Assembly: GCF_000020385.1 (NCBI RefSeq) | Contig: NC_010814.1 | Span: 540,001 to 572,000 of the forward strand | DNA from: Trichlorobacter lovleyi SZ | GTDB taxonomy: Bacteria > Desulfobacterota > Desulfuromonadia > Geobacterales > Pseudopelobacteraceae | Reading direction: 5' to 3' | DNA: 32,000 nt | Part shown: piece by piece, positions 2 through 23,818 of the stretch | Numbering within the stretch: the stretch's first letter is position 1 | Layout: each line of letters starts with the position of its first letter | Made by a program: the position numbers and the translations under genes | Notes under the pieces: generated by a model | Databases searched by the model: none | What the model saw: the letters and a program-made list of their open reading frames with translations, nothing else | What the model was told of the DNA's origin: nothing

Positions 2-754
2 AACGCCATCAAGTTTACCGCCGGTGGCGAGATTGTGGTGCGGGCCTCCAGCCGCTCCCGTGGTGACGGCACCGTGCTGTTTGCGGTTGAGGTGCAGGAC
101 TCCGGGATCGGCATGGACCAGGCCACCCAGCAGACCATCTTTGAACCGTTCATCCAGGCTGACAGCTCCACCAGCCGCAGGTTTGGCGGTACCGGCCTGG
201 GGCTGGCAATCTGCAAACAGCTGGTTGAGCTGATGCATGGCACCATCACGGTTGCCAGCAGCCCGGGCAACGGCAGCACCTTCTGCTTTGCGGTGCCGCT
301 CAAGCCGGGTGTGCTGCCTGCGGCAGCGCCGGAGCCGGTGGCGGTGACCGGTCTTGATCAGCCGCTGCAGATTCTGGTGGCGGAAGACCAGCCGATTAAC
401 CAGCGCTTTGTCGCCGAGATCCTGCGCAAGCAGGGACATCTGCCGCTGCTGGCCAACAACGGCAAGGAGGCGGTGGATATCTGGAACAGTACCGCTGTTG
501 ATATGGTGCTGATGGATATCCAGATGCCGGTTATGGATGGCTTGAAGGCTCTGGCTGCCATTCGTGCTGCTGAAGACGGAACCAAACGCCACACGCCGAT
601 TGTGGCTTTAACGGCCCATGCCATCGTAGGCGATCAGGAACGGTTGCTGAATGCCGGTTTTGACGGCTATCTTGCCAAACCGTTGCAGGTTGCCAACCTG
701 TTTGAGGAGATGGCCAGGGTGCTGGAGCAGATCAGCAAGGAGAGGCGCCTATGA
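2..754 (+). CDS. Hybrid sensor histidine kinase, C-terminal fragment (HATPase_c + receiver); 5' end lies outside the window
   Basis: The frame is open from base 2 (NAIKFT = N-box), so the M at 35 is internal. G-boxes DSGIGM and GGTGLGLAI. Receiver motifs [27 protein letters not shown]. The stop overlaps the next start (ATGA 751-754). Confidence 0.9.
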   Translation, partial: NAIKFTAGGEIVVRASSRSRGDGTVLFAVEVQDSGIGMDQATQQTIFEPFIQADSSTSRRFGGTGLGLAICKQLVELMHGTITVASSPGNGSTFCFAVPLKPGVLPAAAPEPVAVTGLDQPLQILVAEDQPINQRFVAEILRKQGHLPLLANNGKEAVDIWNSTAVDMVLMDIQMPVMDGLKALAAIRAAEDGTKRHTPIVALTAHAIVGDQERLLNAGFDGYLAKPLQVANLFEEMARVLEQISKERRL

Positions 755-3594
755 CAACAGCTGCGGATCGGCATGCCGTTGATGAACTGGTGCGTATCGG
801 CCCCCTGCTGGAGGAGGCGCTTGAAGGTACCGCTACAACAGTTGGTGATGCCTTTCTGGCAGCCCTGGTTACCACGCTGGCCAGGGTGCTCAACGTCCGT
901 TATGCCGTTGTTGGCCGCCTGCTGCCGCAGCATGCTGCAATACAGACCCTGAAGGTCTGTGTCGATGGCGAGCTGGTGGAAAACATCGTGTATCCCCTGT
1001 CCGGAACCCCCTGCGAACATGTGGTGGGGCTGGCTCCGCGTTATTTTGCCGCCGGCGCTGCCGATCTCTTCCCGAAAGACGAACTGCTGCGTCAGCTGCA
1101 GGTTGAATGCTATCTGGGGGTGCCGCTGTACTCATCCCGGCATGAGCCGCTGGGTAATCTGTTGCTGATGGACAGCAAACCGTTACCGGAAGCGCTGGTG
1201 CCGCCGGCCCTGAAACTGATGGAGCTGTTCGCCTTGCGCACGGCCGGAGAGATTGAACGGGCTGAGCGGGAGCAACAACTGGCAATTCAGGATATCCACC
1301 TCGGCATCATCCTGAACAACAGCCGCGACGGCCTGTTGACTGCCTCCGCCGATGCCCGCATACTGGCCGTCAACCGGGCTTACTGTACTCTGCTGGGCTA
1401 TGAGGAGCAGGAACTGCTCGGCCGGTCTATCCACGAGATTGAGGCAAATGAGACAATGGAAGAGGTGGATGCCCACACCCGTAAAATCGTTGAGCAGGGC
1501 TTTGACCGCTTTATCAGCCGTCATCGCTGTAAGGACGGCACAACACGGGATCTGGAGCTTTCCATCAGCTATATCGCCGAGGTCGGCCAGTTTCTGACCA
1601 TTGCCCGGGATGTGACGGAGCGCCTGCTGCTTGAGCGACAACTGCTTGATTCCGAACAGCGCTATCAGGCCTTTACCGAGTTAAGCTCCGACTTCTGCCA
1701 TGTCTGTAGCCGTACGGCCGGCGGACCCTACCGTGTGCAGTGGATCGGCGGCCAGTTTGAGCGGATAACCGGGTATGGTAACGATGAGTTGCTGGCCCTG
1801 GGGTGCTGGCTGCCGCTGGTACACCCCGATGACCGGGAGCGGGTGGCGGCAGGGTTGTTACGGCTGTCTGCCGGTGATGAGCTCCGTTCCGAATTCCGGC
1901 TGGTGCGCAAGGATCTGGTTGTGCGCTGGATCAGTGAGCATAGCCGTTGTGTACAGGACCCCGTCAATCCGGATCTGTTGCGCCTGTACGGTTCAGCCCG
2001 TGATATTACCACCGTGCATGACAACACGCTTGCCCTGCAGACGGCGGAGAATGCCTACCGGACCATCTTCAACGCCACTAATGATGTGATCTTCATCATG
2101 GACGCCCAGCAGGGGATGATCATCGATTGCAACAAACAGGCCGTGCAGCTCTTTGGACGCCCGCGGGTGGATCTGATCGGCTCCAACCCGGTGCAGCTCT
2201 CGCCGCCGGATCATCCCGATTTCGGTTTTGAGCAGGCCGCTGCTCATATCCGGTCTGCCATCGAGGAGGGAGCACAGCTGTTTGAGTGGCTTTGTGCGCG
2301 GCCGGACGGCAGCACCTTCTGGGCAGAGGTCAGCCTGCGGGCCGCCGAGATCAATGGCCGTCAGCGGCTGCTGGCGGTGGTACGGGATATCTCGGAACGA
2401 AAACAGAGTATGCAGGAGCTGCAGCAGGCCCGGGATGCAGCGCTGCAGGCCACCACCGCAAAAAATGAATTTCTGGCCAACATGAGCCATGAGGTGCGTA
2501 CCCCCTTGAACGGCATCATGGGACTGAGCCAGCTGCTGCGTACCACCAGTCTGACCGAAGAGCAGGCCGGCTATATGGATATGCTGGACAGCTCTGCCCG
2601 TAATCTGCTGGTATTGATTAATGATATCCTTGATATCTCGCGGATTGAGGCCGGCAGCCTTACCATCCGGCAAACCGCCTTCAGTCCGGCCAAGCTGCTG
2701 CGGGAAGTGGCGGGGATGTACGAAAAAGCGGCTGCCGAGAAAGGGATCGGGCTGGATATCCTGCCGTGCGATGAGCTGCCTGCCGCTTTGATCGGCGATC
2801 CGCTGCGGCTGCGGCAGGTGCTGATCAATCTGGTGGGAAACGCGATAAAATTCACCAGCCACGGTGGTGTCACCCTGCGGGTGGATTGTCTGGAGGAGTC
2901 TGCCACGGGGATCAGACTTGGTTTTGAGGTGTCCGACAGCGGCATTGGTATGTCTGCGGAAACCCTGCAGAAGATCTTTCATCCCTTTACCCAGGCCGAT
3001 GCCTCCACCTCCCGGGTACATGGCGGCAGCGGTCTGGGGCTGGCCATCTGCCGCCGTCTGTCGGAGCTGATGGGGGGGAGTATCCGTGCTGAAAGCAGCC
3101 TGGGGCAGGGCAGCCGGTTTATTGTCGAGTTGCCCTTTGGGCGCTACCTGGGGACGCAGGATACTGAAGAGACTGAAACTGCAGCCCCGGCACTCCGGCT
3201 TGAACCGTTGCGGATTTTGCTGGTTGAGGATCAGGAGGTAAACCGTACCTTTGTACAACGCCTGCTGGAACGGCAGGGGCATCGGATTGCCGCAGCCGCT
3301 GACGGTCTGATGGCGCTGGATCTGCTGGAGCGGGAACAGTATGATCTGATGCTGCTGGATATTCAGATGCCCGGCATGGGGGGCGAAGAGGTGCTGCTCC
3401 AGTTACGCCGGAATGAACGGAAGAACGGCCGTCATCTGCCGGTCGTTGCCCTGACGGCCCATGCCCTGGCGGGTGACCGGGAAAAGCTGCTGGCAAGCGG
3501 CTTTGACGGCTATGTCAGCAAGCCGGTCCAGATGGATCAGTTGCTGGCTGAGATGGGACGAGCACGTGCAATGAAAGGACAACCTCAGCAATGA
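751..3594 (+). CDS. Hybrid sensor histidine kinase (GAF-like N-terminus, about 3 PAS, HisKA, HATPase_c, receiver)
   Basis: 947-aa ORF. GAF-like segment (TPCEHVV...YLGVPLYS...GNLLLMD) followed by PAS-like repeats. H-box [17 protein letters not shown]-box [12 protein letters not shown]-boxes DSGIGM and GGSGLGLAI. Receiver motifs [32 protein letters not shown] overlaps at both ends. Confidence 0.9.
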
Positions 3595-6500
3595 GTGAAC
3601 AGGCTACACAACTGCCGCCGGAAGAGGATCTGCCGGAGTCCGCGGCCGAAGATGCGGACAACACCGATTGGCAGCCGATTACCGACCTGCTGCGGCGCGG
3701 GCTGGGAATTGACTTCGGCTGTTACCGGGCCGGCACCGTTGGACGCAGGATCATGCGCCGGATGGAGCTATTGCAGCTTGACGACGTTGCTGATTACGCC
3801 ACTTTGCTGGCTGCCAGCCAGGAGGAGCTGGAGGCGCTGGGCCGTGATCTGCTGATCGGCGTGACCGAGTTTTTCCGCGACCCTGCCGTGTTCCGCCGCC
3901 TGGCCGATCTGTTGCGCGAGCTGTTGCGGGGCCGTTCGGCCACGGAAGGATTCAGGATCTGGTCAGCCGGTTGCGCCAGCGGGGAGGAAGCCTATTCTTT
4001 GGCGGTACTGCTGCATGACGTGGCGCAGGAGGTGGGATTTAGCGGCGACCTGAAGGTGTTTGCCACCGACGTTCATAAGGGGGCGTTGGAGATAGCCTCC
4101 CGGGGGGGCTACTGCGGCGAACTGCTTGCCGGTCTGCCCGGTCAGTACCTTGACCGGTACTTCCGCTCTGAAAGCGACGGCTGTTTCAGGATTGATCCGA
4201 TGATCCGCCGCATGCTGGTGTTTGCCCATCACAACCTGCTCTCTGATCCGCCGTTTACCCGGATTGACCTTGCCGTCTGCCGCAACCTGCTGATCTACCT
4301 GCAGGCCGAGGCACAACAGCGGGTACTGACGGCCCTGCAATTCTCTCTGGTGCCGGGCGGCCATCTGCTGCTGGGACCGAGCGAAGGGGTCAGCCATCTG
4401 GCCAATGCCTTCAGCGTACTGGATTCAGGCTGCAAGTTGTTTCGTAAAAATGCGACCCCCCGGGACGGCATTGTTGCGCCAGGTATCCCCTGGGTCGCCC
4501 GTAATCCGCTGCTCGCCTCACTTAACCAGGGAACCCGCACTACCGTTACCCTTGACCGGCACCTGCTGCGTGACTACGACCTGATCCTGGATCGTTACGC
4601 CCCGCCAGGCATGCTGCTGAACAGCCAGCGCCAGGTGCTGCATATCTTTGGTGATCTGAGTGAATACCTGCGGCCCCTGACCGGGCGGCTGACCGGCGAC
4701 ATGTTCAGCAATCTGCGGGATGAACTGCGTCCGGCCCTTTCCACCGCCCTGCTGCGGGCAGAACAGCATGGTGAGGCAACGGTGGTGGACCGGGTGCCTC
4801 TGCTGCAGGAGGAATCCTGCCGGTACGTCGATGTCGCGGTGGCTTGTCTGACGGACGAGCGCAGCGACGGCCTGCATTTTCATGTCACCCTGCGCCCGTC
4901 CGACTGGCAGCCGGAAGCCGGAGACTGCAGCAACAGTAATCACCATGAGGTCGACTCGGCCTTGCATCGCCGGGTGGCCGATATGGAACAGGAGCTGCAC
5001 TCCACCCGTCACTCATTGCAGCTGACCATTGAAGAGCTGCAGTCCAGTAACGAAAAGCTGGATCTGGCCAATGAGGAGCTGATTTCATCAAACGAAGAAC
5101 TGCAAAGCACCAATGAGGAGCTGAAGTCGGTTAACGAAGATCTCTACGCCGTTAACAGCGAGCTTGAACATCGCAATGAAGAGCTGCAGCGGTTAAACCG
5201 TGACCATGACAACCTGCTGGCCAGTACCGAGGTGGGGACGGTCTTTCTCGATCAGCAATTACGGATCCGCAAGTTTTCAAGTGCCATCAGCGCCTTTCTC
5301 AAGCTGCTGCCCCAGGATCTGGGGCGGCCGATTGATCATATCGCCTATGAACTGGGTTCGCCCCAGGAGTTCCGTGAACGGCTGCAGCAGGTGCTGGAGA
5401 GTGGTCTGCGCCATGAACAGGAGATCCATACCGGAGCCGACCAGTGGGTTCTGCAGCGGATACTCCCGTTTCGTACCGACAACGGCAGCATTGATGGCGT
5501 GGTGTTGACCTTCACGGATATCAGTGCGGTCAAGCAGGCCCAGGCCGCTGTGGCAGAGATGAACATTCAGCTGGAGCAGAAGGTGATCGAACGGACCTGC
5601 GAGCTGTCTGCAAGTGAGGCCCGGATTCGTGCCTTCATCGAAAATTCAGGTCAGGGTTTCTGGCAGCTGGGGCCTGACCGGTTGACCATCGATCTGAATC
5701 CGGCCCTTTGCTCCATGCTGGGCTACCGCCGGGAAGAGATGCTGGGCCGCTCTCCGCTTGAGTTTGTGGATGCCGAGAACCGCTCGATCTTCCTGTATCA
5801 GATGGGGCGAATCGACGGAACCGAACATCGCAACTATGAAATAACGCTGCTGCATAAGGATGGGCATCCGGTGCCGGTCATGTTTTCTGCCACTACCCAT
5901 CGCACCGTCGAGGGCAAGGTGGATAGTGCCTTTGCCTTTATTACCGATCTGAGCGAACAGAAGCGGGTAGAACAGGAAATCCGGGCCGCCAAAGAGGCTG
6001 CCGAATCGGCCAACCGGGCCAAGACCCAGTTTCTGGCCAACATCAGTCATGAGGTCCGCACTCCGCTGAACGGGATCATGGGGATGAGTCATCTGCTGCA
6101 TATGACCCCGCTGGCCGACGAACAGCAGGACTACCTGCGCCATCTGGATGATTCGGCCCAGAGTCTGCTGTCGGTGATCAACGACCTGCTGGATTTGACC
6201 AGGATCGAGTCCGGCGGATTCGGGACGGAACAGGCCGATTTTCAGCTGGACCAGCTGGCGCGGGATATCCTGCGGATTCATCAGCCGGTGGCCCAGCGCA
6301 AGGGGGTGCTGTTGCAGCTTGAACTGGCGGACGGCATGCCCGGGCTGCTGCGCGGGGTGCCGTTGCGTCTGAAGCAGGTGCTGCATAACCTGGTGGGCAA
6401 TGCGGTCAAGTTTACCGATCAGGGGCGGGTCGTCCTGTCGATTTCCCCCATCATTGTGCCGGGGCAGTCGTTGCGGGTCCGTTTTGCGGTCTGTGACAGC

Positions 6501-7172
6501 GGTATCGGCATGGAGCCGGAGACCATCAAGCGGATCTTTGATCCCTTCAGTCAGGCCGACGAGTCCATCAGCCGCCGCTATGGCGGTACCGGTCTGGGGT
6601 TGACCATCTGCCGTCGCCTGACTGAGCTGATGGGAGGTACGATTGAGGTGGAAAGCACACCGGGCCAGGGGAGCTGTTTTACGGTGATCCTGCCGATGAA
6701 GACGCCGCTGGGGGCCGTGGTCCCTGCCGATGCGCCGGTCAGGCAGGACAGTTTTGAAAGAAATGCATTGCAGGTTCTGCTGGCTGAGGATCAGCCGGTG
6801 GGACGGCTCTATGCCACCCGTCTGCTGGAGCGGCTGGGGCATCGGGTAACGGCGGTGGAGGATGGCAAACAGGCGATTGAGGCCTGGGAGCAAAACTGTT
6901 TTGACCTGATCCTGATGGATGTGCAGATGCCCGGCATTGACGGGACAATGGCCACTGCAAGTATCCGGCAGCGTGAACAGGAGGGCGGCGTGCGAACACC
7001 GATTATTGCCCTGACGGCCCATGCCTTAACCGGTGACCGTAGTAAACTGATGGAGTGCGGTTTTGATGGCTATGTACCGAAACCGATTGATGTTGAAGGG
7101 CTGCTGGCGGAGGTGAACCGGCTGATAACACCGGCTACCGTGCTCTGCAGCCGGAGAGGAGAACAGCCATGA
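3591..7172 (+). CDS. CheR-type methyltransferase fused to PAS/hybrid histidine kinase (CheR-coiled coil-PAS-PAS-HisKA-HATPase_c-receiver)
   Basis: 1193-aa ORF. CheR-like motifs [41 protein letters not shown]-type coiled coil ([37 protein letters not shown]). H-box [42 protein letters not shown]. Receiver motifs [21 protein letters not shown]. Confidence 0.88.
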
Positions 7173-7996
7173 GACTGTTAGCGGGGTTGGTGATGCTGCT
7201 GGTGTTGGCGGGGGGTTTGCCTGTGCAGGGGGCAGAACAGAAACAGTATGTTTTTGCCGTGCTGCCACAGCGCCCTCCGGTGGCGATGCATACCAGCTGG
7301 CGGCCGTTTCTGGATCAGCTGGAAAAGGAGTTGGGAATAACCCTGAAACTGAAGCTGTACGAAACCATGCCGCAGTTTGAGGACGATATGAAGCATGGCA
7401 CCGGCGATTTTGTCTTCTCTACGCCGCCGCATGTGGTGCTGGCCTACCAGAGCCAGAAATACCGGCCATTGGTACGGGGAAGCCGTACCATTGCAGGGGT
7501 GTTGTTTACCAGGAAAAATTCGGCGATCAAGGAACTGGCTGATCTGGACAACCAGGAGGTTGCCTTTGTCGGCAGCCGGAATGTCTGAAGTCTGGTCGTG
7601 AGACAGGTCCTGTCTCAACAAACGGTACGTCTGAATTTGAAGCAACTGTTCGCCGGTTCCAGCAGTAATGTGTATAAATCCGTCTTGGTGGGTAAGAGCG
7701 CTGCCGGGGCGGTGCTGGATGTTGACTTTGATGCCCAGCCTGAGGATGTGAAGGCCCAGCTGACCCCGCTGGTACGCACACCGAAGATGGCGCCCCATCC
7801 GATTTCCGCCCACCCCCGCGTGCCGAAGCAGTTACAGCAGGCGCTGGAAGCCGCGGTCATAAAAATGGGAAGCACGGCGGAGGGTAAAAAACTGCTGCGT
7901 GCGGTACAGCTGAGCGACCCGGTTCCGGCAGACTATGCCCGGGATTACAAAGTGCTGGAGAAGATGGATTACGACGCATTAACCAAAGGGATCTGA
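7169..7996 (+). CDS. PhnD-family (phosphate/phosphonate-type) periplasmic substrate-binding protein interrupted by one in-frame TGA (7586-7588): candidate selenocysteine recoding, otherwise a pseudogene
   Basis: Track ORFs 7169-7588 and 7598-7996 are in the same frame, separated only by the TGA. Together they read as one about 275-residue binding protein with a signal peptide ([23 protein letters not shown]). PhnD-like layout: YVFAVLPQ..., ...AFVGSRNV[TGA]SLVVRQVL..., [24 protein letters not shown]. The start overlaps the upstream stop (ATGA). Confidence 0.6.
7586..7617 (+). promoter_or_regulatory. UGA plus SECIS-like stem-loop (candidate bacterial selenocysteine insertion element)
   Basis: TGA 7586-7588 is followed by an 11-nt spacer. 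Then comes a hairpin with stem T-GAGACA (7599-7605) / TGTCTC-A (7611-7617) and apical loop GGTCC (7606-7610). The loop GU lies about 22-23 nt from the U of UGA. In my recollection of E. coli fdhF (GCA-GGUC-UGC loop), the equivalent G23/U24 positions are one nt further along. Confidence 0.45.
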
Positions 7997-8000
7997 ACCG

Positions 8001-9512
8001 ATGCAGTTTCTGCCGCGACGCCTGCATACCCGTCTGCTGCTGGCAATCACCCTGGCCATGGCTTTCGGTATTTTAGGATTGTCTTTCTGGACAGCCACCA
8101 GCCAGTCGCGTCAGCTGCTGGCGGCACGGCAGCAACAGGCAGAGCTGCTGACCCGCAATCTGGCAGAAGGGTCTGCCCATTCCTACGTCCTTGAGGATTA
8201 TGCGGCCCTTGACCATTTTCTGCGGCACTCCATGGGACTGCCCGGTGTTCGCCGGGTCGTTGCCTCTGATGAAAACGGGGTCATACTGACTGATTTTACA
8301 CGGGTGTCAGATAGTGCAGAACCTCAATTAAACGTTGGAGGCGGAGAGCGGATCAACGTGCCCGCCGAGCCGTCAGCCAGCCTTGTCCATGCAGGGACTA
8401 TGCTGGTGGTCTGGCAACCGGTCTTAGCAGGTGACCTGCTGGGGTGGCTGCAGGTCAGTTACGGCCTTGAAGAGGTGGCTGCGCTACAACGTCAGATCTG
8501 GTGCAACGGCATTATCTTTGCGCTTGCCGAGGTTGTTGGGGGCATCGTCCTGATCGCCTGGCTGTTGAGGCGGCCGATCAGATCCATCAGCAGGCTGTCC
8601 GGTTTTGCGCGGGATCTGCCGCAGCATAAAGGGATGACCCTGCCGGTTGAGCGTTTTGTCACAGAGGTGCAGGATCTGGGGGAGTCCCTCAACTACGCCT
8701 CAACCGAACTGTGCCGGATTGAACAGGAGTTGCTGGAGCTGAACCGCACCCTGGAGGCGCGTGTTGAGGATGAGCTTGCCAAGAGCCGGGAAAAGGATGC
8801 CCTGTTGTTGCAGCAGGCCCGCTATCAGACCCTCGGTGAGCTGCTGGTCAACATCGCCCATCACTGGCGGCAGCCGCTCAATAACATCGGGGCACGGGTC
8901 CAGGAAAATGCCTGGCTGCTGGCAAATGGCGAGATCCCTCCTGAAAATGCCATGGCTGCTGCCGACCTGATCATGCAGGATCTGAAACAGCTTTCCCGTT
9001 CCATTGAAACCTTTACCCTGCTCTGCCGGCCCGCTCTGCCTGATCAGGTCGTGCTGCCGTCGGATGCGGTCAAAAGGGCGATCCTGATGGTGCAGGACAG
9101 TTATCAGCAGGCAGGGATCAGCTTTGAGCTGAAGCTGAACGCAGAACAGGAACTCCAGGGTTCCCTGCAGGACCTGGTGCAATGTATCCTCAATCTTTTC
9201 AGTAATGCCAGAGATGCCGTTGTGGCCGGTCATGATGCTGCAGGGCTGATCAGGGTGGAAATTGATGTTGAGGAACAGAAGCGCCTGACGATTGCTGTCT
9301 CCGACACGGGCGGGGGAATCCCGCCGCAGTTACTGCATTCGCTCTTTGATCCTTATGTTACCAGTAAGTTTCGTACGCAAGGGGTGGGGTTGGGGTTGTT
9401 TGTGGTGCGGCAGATTATTGAACAGCGCTTTAACGGAACGGTCATAGCCGCCAATCAGGACCGTGGTGCCGTAATAACGATTGCTATTCCGTTGAAACAG
9501 GAGACCGTCTGA
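8001..9512 (+). CDS. Membrane sensor histidine kinase (two TM segments, periplasmic loop, H-box of the AHxWRQPL type, HATPase_c)
   Basis: 503-aa ORF. TM helices LLLAITLAMAFGILGLSFW and IIFALAEVVGGIVLIAWLL. H-box LVNIAHHWRQPLNNI, N-box LNLFSNARDA, G-boxes SDTGGGI and GVGLGLFVV. The stop overlaps the next start (TGATG 9510-9514). Confidence 0.85.
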   Translation: MQFLPRRLHTRLLLAITLAMAFGILGLSFWTATSQSRQLLAARQQQAELLTRNLAEGSAHSYVLEDYAALDHFLRHSMGLPGVRRVVASDENGVILTDFTRVSDSAEPQLNVGGGERINVPAEPSASLVHAGTMLVVWQPVLAGDLLGWLQVSYGLEEVAALQRQIWCNGIIFALAEVVGGIVLIAWLLRRPIRSISRLSGFARDLPQHKGMTLPVERFVTEVQDLGESLNYASTELCRIEQELLELNRTLEARVEDELAKSREKDALLLQQARYQTLGELLVNIAHHWRQPLNNIGARVQENAWLLANGEIPPENAMAAADLIMQDLKQLSRSIETFTLLCRPALPDQVVLPSDAVKRAILMVQDSYQQAGISFELKLNAEQELQGSLQDLVQCILNLFSNARDAVVAGHDAAGLIRVEIDVEEQKRLTIAVSDTGGGIPPQLLHSLFDPYVTSKFRTQGVGLGLFVVRQIIEQRFNGTVIAANQDRGAVITIAIPLKQETV

Positions 9513-9901
9513 TGACACCTACAACTGCTGAAGAATTACAACAGCTCTGTTTGCTCTATGTGGAGGATGAGGATATTGCCCGTTTGTCCATCGGCAGTTT
9601 CCTGCGCCGTCAGGTGGGGGAGCTGCTGCTGGCGTCGCAAGGTGAAGAAGGGTTGCGGCTGTATCAGGAAAAACGCCCGGCCGTGGTGATTACCGATCTT
9701 GAGATGCCGGTCATGAACGGCATGGAGATGATCCGCAGGATACGGGCCCTGGACCATGATATTCCGATCATCATTACCACGGCCTATGATGACGATGCCC
9801 ATTACTGCCCGGAAGCGGATATGACTATTTTGAAGCCGATCAGTTTCATGGAGCTGCTGCAGGCGGTCAAAGACTGCCTGGCAGCGCGGGGGAAAGGGTA
9901 G
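9512..9901 (+). CDS. Single-domain (CheY-like) response regulator receiver
   Basis: 129-aa ORF. Motifs LLYVEDEDI, VVITDLEMPVMNGMEMIRRIR, IIITTAY, ILKPISF. Confidence 0.85.
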   Translation: MTPTTAEELQQLCLLYVEDEDIARLSIGSFLRRQVGELLLASQGEEGLRLYQEKRPAVVITDLEMPVMNGMEMIRRIRALDHDIPIIITTAYDDDAHYCPEADMTILKPISFMELLQAVKDCLAARGKG

Positions 9902-17489: not shown

Positions 17490-18794
17490 TCAGCAGGCTG
17501 GTTGCAAATCAGACATCCGTACCCCCAAATCCTGCAGTACCAACCGTTCCAGCGAGGCGTCCAGCATGGCACGATGGCAATCCACCGTGTCAATAGCACC
17601 ATTTTTTTGCAGCGTCAGTAGTCGGCAGCCGCCAAAACAGAGCGGCAGGTAGGCGCAGTCCAGGCATTCATCATTCTTCCAGATATCCAGCCGGTGTGAT
17701 GCGTGGTAATCACCCAACCCGTCGGCCAAGGTGCCGACGCAGAACTCCGGCCAGCCCATCAGGCTTGGGCATTTGTACAGGCTGCCGTCATAGTTGACCA
17801 CCAGGGTCTGCTCCAGATCGATCATGCAGATGCCCATCTGCAGCTTTTCCACCGTAAAACCTCGCCGCAGTATTTCTTCCCTCAGAAACAGGTTTGCCTC
17901 AATCAGCCACGGTTCGTTGGCAAGGACACAGGCTGCAGCATGGGGATCAAACAGGCCGGATTTGGGGTGGATCGGCGAAAATTGCACCGGTCCCAGTTGC
18001 GCCGGATCAAGACCGGCCTCCAGCAGCAGGTCCAGCATTTCCGGGAAACGGCGGTAATTGTCGCGGGTAAAGTTACCACCCGGTTTGATGGTGACCAGAT
18101 CGTACACCGCTGTGAGATTGTCGATGATGGTCTTGAAACTTCCCTTGCCTGATACAAACGGACGCTGCCGGTCGTGAGTCTCCGGCGGGCCGTCCAGGGT
18201 AATGACGGCACTCTTCAGGCCAAGGGGCAGCAGCTCTTCCACCACAGCCCGTGTCAGCAGGGTGGCGTTGGTAACCAGGCTGAATGAAAAGGTTCTACCT
18301 CGGTTTGCAGCCGCTGCCAGCAGCGGGGTGGCAATTCCCTTCAGTCGCGTGGTTGCCATCAGCGGCTCACCGCCGTAAAAACGTAGTTCAACATTACGCC
18401 CCTGATCAAGCTGCTCTCTGATGAGGTAATCAACCAGAATTCTGCCGGTTTCCTCACTCATCTCCTGGCCGTCCCGGAACGGCTCCTCAAAACAGTAGGG
18501 ACAAGCCAGGTTGCAGGCCAGGGTCAGTACCACCGTGGCGGAAAAGAGCGGGGTATGGGCATTGGTGTGATCAATAATGGCTGCCATTTTGCTACGCTCA
18601 GCCTCAAGGTCATCGGTCCAGAGCTGAAGCTGCTGCAGGGTGGCGCGTTCTTCAGGGGAAAGGGTGTTGTTTGCAATGGAGGTCAACAGCTGCTCAGGTA
18701 CCCTGACCACGGACCCCTTGCGGGTGGAGTAGAGGATGACGAAACCGGGCCGCTGCGGGTCGGGAAATGTGATGACATAGCGGGAAAACGGCAT
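17490..18794 (-). CDS. Radical SAM / SPASM-domain peptide-modifying enzyme (RiPP maturase candidate; possible N-terminal RRE-like domain)
   Basis: CX3CX2C motif LACNLACPYCFE about 100 aa from the N-terminus. C-terminal SPASM-type cysteines (YKCPSLMGWPEFCVG ... ECLDCAYLPLCFGGCRLL). The start is reassigned to ATG 18794 (MPFSRYVITF) with AGGAG at 18807-18803, 8 nt upstream. The track start at 18914 would overlap the upstream peptide gene and has no RBS. Confidence 0.85.
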   Translation of the reverse strand: MPFSRYVITFPDPQRPGFVILYSTRKGSVVRVPEQLLTSIANNTLSPEERATLQQLQLWTDDLEAERSKMAAIIDHTNAHTPLFSATVVLTLACNLACPYCFEEPFRDGQEMSEETGRILVDYLIREQLDQGRNVELRFYGGEPLMATTRLKGIATPLLAAAANRGRTFSFSLVTNATLLTRAVVEELLPLGLKSAVITLDGPPETHDRQRPFVSGKGSFKTIIDNLTAVYDLVTIKPGGNFTRDNYRRFPEMLDLLLEAGLDPAQLGPVQFSPIHPKSGLFDPHAAACVLANEPWLIEANLFLREEILRRGFTVEKLQMGICMIDLEQTLVVNYDGSLYKCPSLMGWPEFCVGTLADGLGDYHASHRLDIWKNDECLDCAYLPLCFGGCRLLTLQKNGAIDTVDCHRAMLDASLERLVLQDLGVRMSDLQPAC

Positions 18795-18813
18795 GGAATA
18801 GTCTCCTGAGAAT

Positions 18814-18842
18814 GTGAATGGGGAGCAAAACTCCCCATTCAC
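18814..18842 (-). promoter_or_regulatory. Intercistronic stem-loop between precursor ORF and maturase gene
   Basis: 12-bp perfect stem (plus strand GTGAATGGGGAG 18814-18825 / CTCCCCATTCAC 18831-18842) with a 5-nt loop. It starts 17 nt after the peptide stop and ends just before the maturase SD. Confidence 0.6.
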
Positions 18843-18859
18843 ATAACTTCCGTTGTTAC

Positions 18860-18949
18860 TTACTTGCGGGTACTGCTGGTACCGCCTGTGCAGCAGGATG
18901 CTACCATCTGACACTCTTCCATTCCCTGATTCAGCACTTCAATTGCCAT
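18860..18949 (-). CDS. 29-aa candidate RiPP precursor peptide MAIEVLNQGMEECQMVASCCTGGTSSTRK
   Basis: Hand translation of the minus strand: ATG at 18949-18947, GGAGA at 18960-18956 (6-nt spacer), TAA at 18862-18860. It is below the ORF-track size cutoff. The core-like C-terminus is rich in Cys/Gly/Thr/Ser, and the ORF lies directly upstream of, and co-oriented with, the rSAM/SPASM gene. Confidence 0.7.
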   Translation of the reverse strand: MAIEVLNQGMEECQMVASCCTGGTSSTRK

Positions 18950-19095: not shown

Positions 19096-20961
19096 TTGAA
19101 CCGTATCTGCAGCAATAAAGTATTGTTGATTCTGCCGATACTGGTATGCCTTACGGCCATGCCGCTCTTTGCTGCCGATGATGCCCTGGAGGATCTGGGT
19201 ATTATTGAGGCCCAGGCTGAATCGGTTGTCTCTGCCTCTCGCAGCCCCCGTCCCGCCTCCCGCATTGCAGAAAACATCACCGTCATCACTGCTGACGACA
19301 TTGAACGCCTGAATGCCCATACCCTGGCAGAGGTGCTGCAGACCGTGCCGGGCATCCAGCTTGATTTTTTGCGCACCCCCGGCACATTCAGCTTCTTTAA
19401 TGTCCAAGGTGCCTTGAATACCACGGTGCTGGTGCTGGTGGATGGTATCCGCCAGAATGATTTTGACCAGAACATGGCTATTGTTGGCCTGATTCCGGTG
19501 CAGCAGATTGAGCGGATCGAGATCATCAAAGGGGCAGCCTCAGCTGCCTGGGGACCGGCCCTGGGCGGGGTGATCAATATCATCACCAAATCCCCTGATG
19601 CTGAGCGCAAGTTCAGCGGCATGGTGTCCGGCTCCACTGGCTCTCAGTTCACCGCAGATTCCCGCGCAGAAGTCAGCGGCACCCTGGATCGTTTCGGCTA
19701 TTATCTGACTGTTGCCAACCTGCGTTCCGATGGCCTGACCCCCAATACCGGCACCAACCAGAACAACCTGTTTACCAAACTCTCCTACCAGTTACCCCAC
19801 AATGGCAGCCTTACCTTTGGCCTGTCCTACCTGACTGCCAGTCCGGGGCTGGATGAAGGGGAAACAGTGAGCTGGGGCTTTGTCCATGACAACAACCAGT
19901 ATCGCCGCACCAATGCCTACCTGAAGCTTAACCAGCCCCTGACTGACCGGTTAACCCTGGAACTGGACAGCTTTCTGACCAACCGTGATGACCATACCAA
20001 GTTTGGCGGCTTGGATGGCTCAGGTAATCTGACCTTTTTTAATGACTATGTGGTGCGGGACACCAACCAGGGGATCAATGCCCGTCTGCGCTGGGGCGAC
20101 TACCAGAAGAGCCTGCTGCTGGGGCTTGATTATAGCCATGCCTGGGCCATCAACAGGGATGCGTTAAGCAGTGATCCGCCAGTCTATGACCGGAGCTGGG
20201 ACCGCTGGGGCATCTATGCAAATGGTGCCTATACGGTGGGACAACTGACCATTCTGCCCGGTGCCCGTTATGACATTACCGGCACCTCTGGCGATGTCAC
20301 CAGCCTGACCCTGGGGGCCACCTATCAGCTGGCTGAACATACGTTGCTGCGGGCCTATGCTGCCCAGGGCTATACCCTGCCCACACCCCGTGCCGATAAC
20401 AAGCTGCAAAAGATCAAGACCATTCAGGCCGGGATCGAGAGTGAGGCGCTGCCTTTTCTCTGGCTGAAGGGGACCTTTTTCTTTAATGCCCTGCGTGACA
20501 GCCAATCTATCGGTACCGTAACCACCACCAACCAGCAGCGCCAGGGGATTGAGCTGGAGGCCCGCACCGCGCCGCTGTACGGTCTTTCCCTGACCAGTGG
20601 CTATACCTACCTGGATGCCTGGGACAGTGATACTGGCCAGCGTCTGCACACCAACTATAATCAGGCGGTTCCGCCCCACACCGTGAAACTGGCCTTGAAC
20701 TACGATAACCGTGAGCTGGGGCTGCGCGGTACTGTAACCGGTAACTATGTCTGGTGGAACAGGGATGAAAGCACTGCTGCCCGTGACACCGGCATGATCT
20801 GGGATCTGCATCTGAACTGGCGGTTGAAGTCATTTTATAAACTGACACCGGAGTTGTTCTTCTCTGCCCACAACCTGTTCAACGGTGTACAGACTACGGA
20901 TACCGAGTTATACACCAATGCCAAGCGCTGGTTTGAAGGCGGCCTGCGGGTGAAGTTCTGA
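19096..20961 (+). CDS. TonB-dependent outer-membrane receptor (small, about 620 aa)
   Basis: TTG start with GGGGAG 7 nt upstream. Signal peptide ...CLTAMPLFA/ADD. Plug motifs NITVITADDIERLNAHTLAEVLQTVPGIQL and IERIEIIKGAASAAWG. Beta-barrel-like alternating sequence ending in a terminal aromatic residue (GGLRVKF). Confidence 0.9.
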   Translation: MNRICSNKVLLILPILVCLTAMPLFAADDALEDLGIIEAQAESVVSASRSPRPASRIAENITVITADDIERLNAHTLAEVLQTVPGIQLDFLRTPGTFSFFNVQGALNTTVLVLVDGIRQNDFDQNMAIVGLIPVQQIERIEIIKGAASAAWGPALGGVINIITKSPDAERKFSGMVSGSTGSQFTADSRAEVSGTLDRFGYYLTVANLRSDGLTPNTGTNQNNLFTKLSYQLPHNGSLTFGLSYLTASPGLDEGETVSWGFVHDNNQYRRTNAYLKLNQPLTDRLTLELDSFLTNRDDHTKFGGLDGSGNLTFFNDYVVRDTNQGINARLRWGDYQKSLLLGLDYSHAWAINRDALSSDPPVYDRSWDRWGIYANGAYTVGQLTILPGARYDITGTSGDVTSLTLGATYQLAEHTLLRAYAAQGYTLPTPRADNKLQKIKTIQAGIESEALPFLWLKGTFFFNALRDSQSIGTVTTTNQQRQGIELEARTAPLYGLSLTSGYTYLDAWDSDTGQRLHTNYNQAVPPHTVKLALNYDNRELGLRGTVTGNYVWWNRDESTAARDTGMIWDLHLNWRLKSFYKLTPELFFSAHNLFNGVQTTDTELYTNAKRWFEGGLRVKF

Positions 20962-21818
20962 TGCGGCGCCTGGTCCTGTGCATAGTCGCCCTGGCGTTGT
21001 TGGTTCCCTCATTGGCCCGGGCCTATGATCTGCTGGTACTGCAGAGCAAGCGCAATCCGGCGTATGACGAGATGCTGAAAGGGTTTAGCGAGAGACGGAA
21101 CGTTTCCCGGCGGGTGATTGTGCTGTCCGACTATGCCGAGGTGGATGTGGCCCGGATTGCACGGGAGGACCGTCCGACATTGATCCTGGCTGTGGGAGAT
21201 ACGGCCCTGGCAGCGGCCCGCAAGGTGCGCACCATCCCGGTGGTGGCGCTGATGTCCCTTGATCTGCGCCGGTTGCAGGCCGTTCAGCCGAACCTGACCG
21301 GCATTGATATGTTTGTGGCACCGGAAAATTACTGCAATCTGCTGCGTCAGATGAAGGCGCGCCGGGTGGGAATCCTCTATAATCCTGCCAGAAACGGCTG
21401 GTACCTGCGCCAGGCGCGGCAGGCCGCCGAAAAGGCGGGTATCACGCTGGTGGCGCGCGAGGTGACCGATCCCCGCGATACCCTGACCAAGCTGGCGTCG
21501 CTGGCCGGCAAGGTGGATGCGCTCTGGATGCTGCCGGATGTCACGGCGGTAACCAGGGAAACGGCAGAGGCCTATTTCCATTTCAGCCAGCAGCAGGCGG
21601 TGCCGGTGGTGTCGTTTGCCGCCAACTATCTGGGGCTGGGAGCGGCGGCGGTGTTTGAGATTGATCGCGCAGCCCTGGGACGCCAGGCCAATGAGATGGT
21701 GACATCACTGCTTGACGGAGACGCTGTTGACAGTACCTCGTTACGCTTTCCCCGCGGCGTTGTACTCAAGACCAATGCCGGCATCCTGAGACGTCTGGGG
21801 GCATCCCTTGAAGAATGA
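20961..21818 (+). CDS. Periplasmic substrate-binding protein, COG2984 / ABC_sub_bind-like (no cognate permease or ATPase nearby)
   Basis: 285-aa ORF with signal peptide [21 protein letters not shown]. Periplasmic-binding-fold pattern ([18 protein letters not shown]..., [12 protein letters not shown]..., VDALWMLPD..., VPVVSF). The start overlaps the receptor stop (TGATG) and the stop overlaps the kinase start (ATGA). Confidence 0.7.
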
Positions 21819-23818
21819 ATCGTACAAAACAGCCGCAGCCGTGCAGATGCCACCGCTCCGGCGTTGCAATGACTGCTTTTAAGGAGCTGACCGTGCTACG
21901 ATGTGCAAAATGGTCAAACATCCGTACCAGGTTTCAATGCAAGCTCTTCATCATCTTTACCCTGCTGACCTTTCTGATCGTCTCCACACTCAGTACCCTC
22001 TTTATTATCCATGAGATCAAAAAATCAAAAAAATCTGCGGCGGCACATCTCCGGCTGCAGGTAGAATATCTGGCTGAATCGATCCGGCTGCCGCTGTTTG
22101 CAGAAAATGCCGAGCTGCTGCGGCAGATGGCCGAGCAGGCCGCCCGGTTGCCGGAGGTCCGTGCGGTGGTGATCAGGGCCCCGGACGGCAGGGTCCTGGC
22201 AGCGGTCTATCCTGCGTCAGCGACCGGTAGCCGCGAGGAAGTGCTCAGTCAAAGCATCGAGGTCTGCAGCAATCCCCAGGCAGGTTCACCGATTGCGTCT
22301 CTGACCGATGGTCTTGATACGCCGTCGTTACTGGGCAGTGTGCGGATCGAACGGGGGACGGCCGATATGGACCGGGCTGTCCGCAAGCTGATTGCCTGGT
22401 CCGTGGCCCTGGCTCTGCTCTTCTGGCTGGCGGTTTCTTTACTGAGCCATCTGGTGCTGCGGCAGGTGACCCGTTCGTTCAATAATCTGGTGAGCGGTAT
22501 TGCCGCCCTGCAGGATGGCGACTACGGCACTCTGATCGAGGTTGATTCCGATGATGAGCCGGGCCGTGCTGCGGCAGCAGTCAACGGCCTGGCTCGTTCG
22601 CTGCAGCAGCGCTCCGAGGAAAACAGGCAGGCCAGGGAAGAGCTGCTCCAGGCCAAGTCCGAAGCAGAGGCTGCCAATACCGCCAAATCTGAATTTCTGG
22701 CCAATATGAGCCATGAGATTCGTACCCCCATGAGCGGGCTGATCGGCAATGCCCAGCTGCTGCGCTTGACCCAGCTGAATGCTGAGCAGACGGGGTATCT
22801 TACCAACATTGAGACTGATGCGAAAAACCTGATGTCGTTAATTAACGACGTGCTGGATATCTCCAAGATTGAGGCCGGAAAACTTGAACTTGAGAGTGCG
22901 CCGTTCAGTCTGCGCAGTTGCGTTGCTCAACTGCTCAAGTCCCAGGAAGCGCGGATAGCCGCCAAGGCGATTGTGCTAACGCATGAAATCGCTGCCGATC
23001 TCCCTGACAGCCTGTTCGGCGATCAGTTGCGCCTCAAACAGATCCTGTACAACCTGGTGGGGAACGCCATCAAGTTTACCGCCAAAGGTGAGATACGGGT
23101 CAAGGTTGAGTTGCTGGAGCGCCATGATGACAAGGCCCGCTTCTGCTTCAGTGTTACTGACACCGGCATCGGTATCAGGCCGGAGGCGCGTGAGAAGATC
23201 TTCGCACCGTTTATACAGGCTGATGCCTCGGTGACCCGCCGTTTCGGCGGCACCGGCCTGGGGTTGTCGATCTGCAGCCGGCTTGTCCAGCAGATGGGAG
23301 GGGGGATAACTGTTGAGAGCGAGGAGGGGAAAGGCAGCACCTTCTCCGTCACCCTGCCGTTTCTGATCAACTCGCAGCCGCTGCCTCAGCAGGAAACGCT
23401 GCCGCAGGACCGAAAACTGATGTGGGAAGGGGCTCCATTACGGATCCTGCTGGCGGATGACAGCGAAACCAACTGCACCATGTTGAGTATTCTGCTCTCC
23501 CGCTTTGGCCATAGTGTCACCCCGGCAGGTGACGGGGCTGAAGTGTTGCAGCAATGGCAGAAGGGTGGTTTTGATGTTGTCCTGATGGATATTCAGATGC
23601 CGGTTATGGACGGCATGGAGACAACCCGGGTTATCAGGGAGCATGAAAGGAAAAACGGCGGGCATCTTCCCATTATCGCCCTGACGGCCCATGCGCTGAA
23701 AGAGACGCGGGAGCATATGTTAAGTGCCGGTTTTGACGGCTATGTTTCAAAGCCGATTGATCTGAAACTGCTGCATGATGAAATGCGGCAGGTGATTGTG
23801 CAGGATGGGAAGATGTAG
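21815..23818 (+). CDS. Hybrid sensor histidine kinase (2 TM + periplasmic segment, HAMP-like linker, HisKA, HATPase_c, receiver)
   Basis: TM helices [22 protein letters not shown] and [20 protein letters not shown]-box [42 protein letters not shown]. Receiver motifs [28 protein letters not shown]. The true start could instead be ATG 21866 (MTAFKEL). Confidence 0.88.

Follow-up and report, generated by a model that had tools for sequence, protein, structure and literature searches.

The two-lobed PhnD-like fold is shared by the binding proteins PhnD, PtxB and HtxB (PF12974, TIGR01098, TIGR03431) and by AioX, ArrX and ArxX, whose genes are linked to the arsenic genes aio, arr and arx. AioX and ArrX are encoded beside a sensor kinase (AioS or ArrS) and a response regulator rather than a transporter, and in AioX the pocket cysteine Cys106 bonds arsenite directly (PMC5908839). 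A separate line of work has described substrate-binding proteins that contain selenocysteine (Sec), namely SaoB and SaoX (Haft and Gwadz, bioRxiv 10.1101/2022.07.06.499078) and BtuF (Table 1 of Zhang et al. 2026, PMC13188914). Here we describe a gene of Trichlorobacter lovleyi SZ that would unite features of these groups. It occupies positions 7169–7996 of a 32,000-nucleotide (nt) stretch of DNA (GCF_000020385.1, contig NC_010814.1, 540,001 to 572,000), referred to below as the window, and an in-frame UGA interrupts its coding sequence for a PhnD-like binding protein. The reading that we favour, and to which we assign a rough probability of 0.87, is that 7169–7996 constitutes a single functional gene whose UGA at codon 140 is read as Sec and whose product is partnered with a sensor kinase. 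That the UGA is a genuine Sec codon served by a selenocysteine insertion sequence (SECIS) appears highly likely from comparison of its homologues.

The interrupted gene and its homologues

Two open reading frames (ORFs), 7169–7588 and 7598–7996, share one frame, and the TGA at 7586–7588 is the sole stop within 7169–7996 (window coordinates, plus strand unless stated otherwise). The gene thus stands as two split ORFs of 139 and 132 amino acids (aa). Neither fragment has an NCBI protein accession, and in JGI the N-terminal one is labelled 'ABC-type phosphate/phosphonate transport system, periplasmic component' (ABC, ATP-binding cassette). Read as one chain the frame encodes 275 residues, with the UGA as the presumed Sec codon at residue 140 in the motif GSRNV-U-SLVVR, and a Pfam match to PF12974 (Phosphonate-bd) spans the stop from residue 29 to residue 260 (E = 2e-46). 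The original prediction, made from the letters of the window, had described a single-frame PhnD-like fold split only by this TGA and devoid of cysteine; both observations stand, with one frame, one stop, a domain match running through it and a cysteine count of zero in the translated protein. By inspection of the translation, 7169–7231 encodes a predicted secretory (Sec-type) signal peptide without a twin-arginine motif, followed by AEQ at the presumed cleavage site; in an AlphaFold model of a Cys homologue the globular fold excludes the first ~27 residues. UGA is a normal terminator in the same operon, at 7170–7172 and 7994–7996, and an alternative genetic code was therefore rejected. Long ORFs flank other in-frame TGAs of the window as well; each of these is antisense to a real gene, and none is credible as a recoding site. 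The kinase encoded downstream is identical to ACD94295.1/WP_012468651.1 of Trichlorobacter (Geobacter) lovleyi SZ.

A search of 5.8 billion clustered proteins retrieved 74 full-length homologues of 269–294 aa. A full-length version of the window protein was absent from this collection, the best match being 72% identical. At the column of the TGA, Cys is found in 56 of the 74 homologues, Ala in 14 and Gly in four. Cys occupies the column in every homologue that is at least about 40% identical to the window protein, and most of the closest homologues have no Cys besides it; the Cys homologues are all single chains. Alignment of orthologues had been proposed as a check on the Sec codon, and down to about 40% identity the position proved to hold Cys or UGA and not Ser, Ala or Gly. 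Within the Ala/Gly subfamily one locus (L048, at ~950) carries an in-frame TAG shortly after the loop region, which is probably a pseudogene or an assembly error and not related to Sec.

Orthologues that retain the UGA were sought in three ways, namely in species-representative genomes, among representative proteins and by a pattern scan of metagenomes. TGA at the same codon occurs in a Trichlorobacter sp. (L007, 92% aa identity), in uncultured Geobacter (L008–L010, 78%) and in Geobacter sp. UBA5608 (L014, 54%), whereas the codon is TGC or TGT in T. thiogenes and at about 35 further loci. Searching 1.8 billion representative proteins with the N-terminal fragment yielded four ORFs that stop exactly at the site (P0082, P0094, P0171 and P0108, 40–46% identity); the contigs that carry them have TGA at this codon, with the C-terminal half following in the same frame. 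The metagenome pattern, [IV]A[FY]VGx[KR]Nx-TGA, holds no information on any hairpin. It returned 15 loci, nine of them true orthologues and six chance matches, which were discarded. Altogether the same-codon TGA was found in L007–L010, L014, L087–L094, L096, L099, L103–L105 and L107. Counting the window, there are 17 distinct UGA forms, the 16 others covering 40–92% aa identity and coming from genomes as well as metagenomes. T. lovleyi SZ itself was missing from the results of the species-representative scan though the window peptide fits the pattern; masking or the choice of representative may explain this. The best match of that scan was a different Trichlorobacter species at 92% identity.

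On a neighbour-joining tree the UGA forms fall into at least four clades that are interleaved with Cys clades, and no UGA form has a further internal stop. The ratio of nonsynonymous to synonymous substitution rates (dN/dS), calculated against four relatives at dS of 0.5–2, is 0.08–0.11 for the 117 codons before the UGA and 0.07–0.12 for the 135 codons after it. A codon that alternates only with Cys codons over at least four clades is, on this comparative evidence, the signature of Sec/Cys exchange and not of a tolerated stop. The TGA is also reproducible between samples. Of the 19 contigs on record with the identical 139-aa N-terminal ORF, six were examined. Each came from an independent sample (four were Logan runs, one was an ENA assembly and one a JGI metagenome), and each shows the split into 139 and 132 aa with TGA.

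Recognition of a selenoprotein at this site would correct an annotation that now reads as two fragments or a pseudogene, in T. lovleyi SZ, a model organism for organohalide and metal respiration, and in many metagenome bins.

A hairpin restricted to the UGA forms

The UGA is followed by an 11-nt spacer (7589–7599) and a 17-nt hairpin (7600–7616), the candidate bacterial SECIS. The stem pairs GAGACA (7600–7605) with UGUCUC (7611–7616) around the loop GGUCC (7606–7610), and U7599–A7617 is a possible seventh pair. The hairpin had been predicted at this distance from the TGA, and it is present with 6 base pairs (bp) and the optional closing pair; the predicted place of the loop G and U, +22/+23 with the U of UGA as +1, was likewise borne out by counting. 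The prediction had further likened the element to the SECIS of Escherichia coli fdhF, and comparison with the fdhF genes of E. coli genomes confirmed the layout. The fdhF element reads TGA-CACGGCCCATC-GGTTGCA GGTC TGCACC and that of the window TGA-AGTCTGGTCGT-GAGACA GGTCC TGTCTC, and of 5426 complete E. coli genomes 5419 have the sequence TGACACGGCCCATCGGTTGCAGGTCTGCACC... in fdhF without a mismatch. Both elements lie inside the coding sequence directly 3' of an in-frame UGA, and both combine an 11-nt spacer with a 17-nt stem-loop that has G and U in its apical loop. The window element differs in its perfect 6-bp stem, which has no bulged U, and in a loop of 5 nt (GGUCC) rather than 4 nt (GGUC), which places the invariant loop G at +22 rather than +23. 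The smallest functional SECIS of fdhF is reported to be the 17-nt upper helix at a distance of 11 nt from the UGA (Liu et al. 1998). The likeness between the two elements is one of sequence geometry, and binding of the window hairpin by SelB is predicted.

The significance of the hairpin comes, as we read it, from comparison of orthologues and not from the fold of the single sequence. All 17 distinct UGA forms have a 6-bp stem and a 5-nt loop that start exactly 11 nt past the UGA, so that the length of the spacer is invariant (17/17). RNAalifold, run unguided, gives exactly this 6-bp helix as the consensus; standard pairs fill 102/102 cells of the stem alignment, and no shuffle and no slid register comes close. 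Covariation in the stem had been put forward as a check, and compensatory changes were found at two pairs: the basal pair is C-G in seven forms, G-C in six and U-A in four, and the second pair is A-U in 15 and C-G in two. Two further stem pairs vary to G-U. Several of the covarying changes are synonymous choices of Arg and Ser codons (AGA/TCT versus CGG/TCG); in others an amino-acid change on the 3' side is matched by a third-position change on the 5' side.

The Sec and Cys forms are sharply separated by this structure. The full stem (6/6 pairs) is present in 16/16 Sec forms and 0/35 Cys forms (Fisher p = 1.4e-13), and loop position 2 (7607), an invariant G in the UGA forms, is G in 16/16 Sec forms against 13/35 Cys forms (p = 1e-5); these p-values treat the sequences as independent and are uncorrected for shared ancestry. 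The association between hairpin and UGA appears robust in spite of shared ancestry because there are at least four separate Sec clades. The Cys forms pair between one and five of the six positions, most often three, and those with the same R-[QH]-x-L-S peptide pair 5, 2, 5, 4 and 2 positions. Random synonymous recoding of the peptide produces 6/6 pairs in just 1–5% of cases.

The pattern also speaks to the history of the element. The hairpin has the same position and the same AGACA...UGUCU core in all Sec clades, across which we regard it as homologous, and the Cys clades show a graded decay: the closest (L011 and L013) hold 5/6 pairs and the others one to four. Replacement of Sec by Cys is the usual direction in selenoprotein evolution. 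The subfamily probably started out with Sec and this SECIS, after which Sec was repeatedly replaced by Cys and the hairpin then decayed. Natural Sec/Cys pairs combined with a minimal, covarying 17-nt SECIS would make this family a compact and testable system for the evolution and decay of SECIS elements.

Pocket, probable partner kinase and competing readings

The structural picture derives from an AlphaFold model of the 72%-identical Cys homologue P0001, which stands in for the window protein (mean predicted local distance difference test, pLDDT, 93.2; predicted template modelling score, pTM, 0.85). In this model Cys142 lies in the first turn of helix 141–152, right after strand 132–135 (AFVG). 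The best matches among PDB structures are ArrX (arsenate-bound, 6XL2), PtxB, XAC2383, PhnD, HtxB and AioX, with Foldseek template modelling (TM) scores of 0.6–0.78 to PtxB, PhnD and ArrX; the best sequence-profile match in the PDB is ArrX (E = 2e-14). Profile alignments put the Sec/Cys column on the third residue of the PtxB S-T-S loop, on the second S of S-F-S in ArrX and on the T of S-T-S in E. coli PhnD, a placement that carries an uncertainty of one residue. The loop of the window protein reads N-V-U(C)-S, and Sec or Cys thus replaces the second or third hydroxyl residue of S-T-S. The column falls in the anion-binding loop at the N-terminus of a helix, and the Sec is therefore placed in the ligand pocket. 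The original prediction had aligned the UGA by eye with this loop and argued that a Sec would be the only chalcogen in the pocket; the profile alignments to PtxB, PhnD and ArrX agree with it, as does the cysteine-free translation.

A sister subfamily, whose loop usually reads FPAPNAFGAS, offers a separate observation on the same loop. Two loci from Thermodesulfovibrionia of Hainich groundwater (L047:6337–6366 and L108:523–552) have an in-frame TGA one residue N-terminal of the site in the main family, in the sequences AFPAPNA-TGA-AGAIVVR and AFPAPDS-TGA-AAAIVVR; beyond this codon the reading frame stays open to full length. Twelve nt past the TGA comes a perfect hairpin, GUUGUG-CGUG-CACAAC; the two stems are identical and so offer no covariation. 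Homologues have F (81), L (10), I (9), Y (4) or C (4) at this column, and Cys counterparts are thus rare. Possibly the pocket loop offers a second Sec site here, independent of the first.

The genes around 7169–7996 are tightly packed. The stop of a CheR-PAS-HisKA-HATPase-REC hybrid kinase (3591–7172; from the ORF list and the Pfam annotation of the identical gene in L001) overlaps the start of the binding protein in the sequence ATGA, which suggests that the two belong to one operon. Downstream, a membrane-bound sensor histidine kinase of 503 aa with a HATPase_c domain (8001–9512) starts 4 nt past the stop of the binding-protein gene, and its own stop is overlapped by the start of a single-domain response regulator (9512–9901; PF00072, E = 3e-20). 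Loci L001–L006 have the same order of binding protein, kinase and response regulator. In 49 of 51 loci, Sec and Cys forms together, the next gene starts between -29 and +26 nt from the stop; in the two exceptions just about 200 nt of contig are left. All 35 downstream proteins that were aligned share an N-terminal module of ~250 residues with a transmembrane–periplasmic–transmembrane layout, fused to variable outputs; HATPase_c is present in 27 of the 35, and the rest have PAS domains. The module itself (8001–8750 in the window, with equivalents in L007–L053) has no Pfam match, is marked by the motifs LPRRL, EDYA-L, WQPI-AG-LGWL and FA-L-KG, and is joined to histidine kinase (HK), PAS-HK-REC or PAS-only outputs.

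The coupling to a kinase, the lack of an ABC permease or ATPase gene adjacent to it in the window, and scores far below the cut-offs for PhnD have led us to conclude that the protein is probably the periplasmic ligand-binding partner of the 8001–9512 kinase, a claim based on gene order and analogy. In the NCBIfam scan the matches were TIGR01098, TIGR03431 and TIGR04553 only, all of them below cut-off, with 40.2 against 261.1 bits for TIGR03431 (PhnD) and 45.7 against 112 bits for TIGR01098. Of the original description as a PhnD-family binding protein, the PhnD-like fold thus stands, while the role in ABC phosphonate binding gives way to that of a probable sensor-kinase partner.

In the mechanism that we propose, the UGA at codon 140 would be recoded to Sec, the hairpin being a bacterial SECIS through which SelB, loaded with Sec-tRNA(Sec), is brought to the ribosome. 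The 275-residue product would be exported by its Sec-type signal peptide and fold in the periplasm into a two-lobed binding protein like PhnD, PtxB and ArrX, with its sole chalcogen side chain in the pocket, in the first helix turn after the strand AFVG, where phosphonate and phosphite binders have the S-T-S loop. Instead of forming part of a transporter it would serve the kinase 8001–9512, which in turn would signal to the regulator 9512–9901, in an arrangement analogous to AioX-AioS-AioR and ArrX-ArrS-ArrR. The ligand suggested by a lone selenolate or thiolate, set where an oxyanion pocket otherwise has a hydroxyl, is a thiophilic or redox-active one; metalloid oxyanions, sulfur or selenium species and soft metals are speculative candidates. 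Covalent capture of a thiophilic ligand through an Se-X or S-X bond, proposed by analogy with AioX, is at best a tentative idea. In the complete scheme, likewise less probable than not, this would be the first selenoprotein to act as a two-component ligand sensor: the periplasmic selenolate, or the thiolate of Cys forms, would bond reversibly (Se-X) to its signal, and formation of the bond would close the lobes and switch the partner kinase. Known selenoproteins are for the most part redox enzymes that have UxxC or CxxU motifs. If the scheme were true, Sec would be used for sensing chemistry and not for catalysis, and the use of selenium would extend to signal perception. The protein would present a lone Sec in a non-enzymatic binding fold wired to a histidine kinase, and its U, C and S variants would provide a handle on the ligand.

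Several points weigh against the reading of 7169–7996 as a Sec-decoded sensor gene. The single-sequence fold is unremarkable (71-nt fold, z = -0.35 against shuffles), and a search of the site for a known SECIS model, which the original prediction had suggested, came back negative, Rfam giving no SECIS match for the whole window at gathering score or for 7400–7800 at E <= 10; the best Rfam result at 7400–7800 is a sub-threshold NiCo riboswitch that we judge to be noise. The Rfam result is weak negative evidence because bacterial SECIS elements are short and heterogeneous. The stem moreover lies within the coding sequence, and its CAG/CUG part follows from the conserved Q/H-x-L peptide; 4/6 pairs therefore show little or no compensatory variation. 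The Sec trait of the host is taken from a published table, with none of selA, selB, selC and selD in the 32-kb window: neither selA, selB nor selD is among the annotated large ORFs, and a tRNA scan of the window found no tRNA-Sec. According to that published analysis the trait is present, Geobacter lovleyi SZ being listed with 12 selenoproteins (Peng et al. 2016, Table S2, PMC5029168). The sensor role and the ligand chemistry are argued only from gene order and analogy, and nothing nearby in the 32-kb window points to a particular ligand or target operon. A last point touches novelty and not mechanism. Table S3 of Peng et al. (2016) has an undefined family 'Unknown (Geobacter lovleyi)', found in five organisms, with which the window family might conceivably coincide. 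It is probably, we think, a different protein, because a recognisable PhnD domain would hardly be called unknown and because few isolate genomes carry the Sec form.

Other accounts of the UGA have to be set against Sec insertion. The original prediction had itself named a nonsense-mutated pseudogene or a sequencing error, in which case the TGA terminates and the hairpin is coincidental. Gene callers do split the gene, NCBI has no protein for it, and the hairpin is neither energetically exceptional alone nor matched by an Rfam SECIS model. A base-call error is nevertheless contradicted by the recurrence of the TGA in six contigs from six independent samples, of 19 on record, and a recent mutation by its retention in 16 further distinct orthologues down to about 40% identity; the downstream half evolves at a dN/dS of about 0.1 without further stops, and the hairpin correlates perfectly with TGA versus TGC/TGT. 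The comparative data effectively refute this account, and we give it next to no weight. An equally negligible chance attaches to a split gene, in which residues 1–139 would assemble into a binding protein with a second chain re-initiated at GTG 7598. This codon does open the second ORF, and callers report both halves with PF12974 matches, yet it sits immediately 5' of the stem and has no conserved counterpart in the other UGA forms. The C-terminal half, lacking a signal peptide, could not reach the periplasm, the break would fall at the start of a helix inside one lobe, and the Cys homologues are all single chains. Somewhat more room, if still very little, is left for bypass of the UGA without Sec, be it near-cognate readthrough by Trp, Cys or Arg, perhaps stimulated by the hairpin, or dominant termination with the hairpin tuning the ratio of truncated to full-length product. 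Downstream structures are established stimulators of stop-codon readthrough, and we infer selenium incorporation itself, the support for decoding being comparative. Set against bypass are the exchange of the codon only with Cys codons over at least four clades, the 11-nt spacing, 17-nt size and G/U loop shared with the SelB-binding element of fdhF, the decoding of Sec by the host according to the published table, and the disruption of the second lobe of the fold in a 139-residue fragment.

The remaining alternative concerns function only. The product could be a genuine selenoprotein and yet, as a substrate-binding subunit, deliver a phosphonate-, phosphite- or selenate-like anion to an ABC importer that is encoded elsewhere, instead of serving a sensor. 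The family is annotated as phosphate/phosphite/phosphonate ABC substrate-binding protein, the window protein weakly matches TIGR04553, a putative selenate ABC binding protein (E = 3e-4), and some binding proteins are described as serving a transporter and a sensor both (PMC8050422). This role is nonetheless unlikely in view of a window without an adjacent ABC permease or ATPase gene, a gene within 30 nt downstream in 49/51 loci and the sensor module in 35/35 aligned proteins. The scores (40 versus 261 bits for PhnD, 46 versus 112 bits for TIGR01098) and the replacement of the S-T-S anion loop by N-V-U point the same way, and we prefer the sensor partnership.

The wider window holds further signalling genes. 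Directly upstream and in the same orientation as the putative selenoprotein gene, several multi-PAS hybrid histidine kinases are encoded one after another in 35–7172, among them the one at 3591–7172 with its N-terminal CheR-type methyltransferase. A methyltransferase is encoded upstream by a gene of its own too, and the whole run suggests a large phosphorelay operon. A second set of binding protein plus kinase is found at 19096–23818 (plus strand), with overlapping stops and starts; it comprises a TonB-dependent receptor (19096–20961), a PF04392 ABC_sub_bind protein (20961–21818) and a HAMP hybrid histidine kinase (21815–23818). The TonB receptor has weak, sub-threshold matches to NCBIfam receptor families with Sec motifs (PCPU, PUIUD, FCYXU and CU) and contains no in-frame TGA. 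On the minus strand, 17490–18914 encodes a radical SAM/SPASM enzyme that matches TIGR04280, 'geopeptide radical SAM maturase', with 699 bits against a cut-off of 400. Other neighbours include an Etf-linked Fe-S oxidoreductase, glutamate dehydrogenase and aspartokinase.

Relation to known systems

The original prediction had known of no described Sec-containing PhnD-like protein, and the catalogues agree. Neither PF12974, TIGR01098 nor any PhnD-like family is among the 119 prokaryotic selenoprotein families of the latest review (Zhang et al. 2026, PMC13188914), no model of NCBIfam release 20 captures the window protein, and literature searches for a PhnD-like or phosphonate-binding selenoprotein returned nothing relevant. 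The protein described here would thus add a family that is missing from the latest catalogue.

With PhnD, PtxB and HtxB the window protein has in common the fold, a full-length Pfam match and the location of the ligand loop at the N-terminus of the helix after strand 5. It departs from them in scoring below the NCBIfam cut-offs, in having N-V-U/C for S-T-S, in its coupling to a kinase and in the absence of an adjacent permease or ATPase gene. The AioX group (AioX, ArrX and ArxX; PDB 6ESK, 6EU7 and 6X6B) likewise has the two-lobed PhnD-like fold (PMC5908839), and like AioX and ArrX the window gene lies beside a sensor kinase and a response regulator and not beside a transporter. Sequence identity to AioX and ArrX is just 14–17%, however, and unlike the arsenic-linked genes of that group the window gene has no aio, arr or arx gene anywhere in the 32 kb. 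The pocket residues differ too: Cys106 of AioX corresponds to Gly65 of PhnD (PMC5908839), whereas the Sec/Cys of the window family lies about 60 residues later, in the S-N-S/S-T-S loop. An AioX-like mechanism at the same residue was accordingly rejected, the cysteines occupying different positions of the pocket.

In the AioX group we know of no member that contains Sec, and in this respect SaoB, SaoX and BtuF are the nearer parallel. Like the window protein they have extracytoplasmic binding-protein folds with Sec in a predicted ligand pocket, and databases likewise show them as two truncated ORFs at a TGA that aligns with the Cys of homologues. They belong to unrelated binding-protein families, and the models NF040727 (SaoB) and NF040735 (SaoX) have no match here. 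SaoB, SaoX and BtuF pair their Sec with a Cys close by or a fixed residue of the motif (CU, CUxxT, UxP and CxxU), whereas the Sec of the window protein would be its only chalcogen; and they work in ABC transport systems, whereas the window protein is probably coupled to two-component signalling. Overall, the mechanism of recoding is a standard one; what appears to be new, as far as selenium is concerned, is the protein family together with its signalling context.

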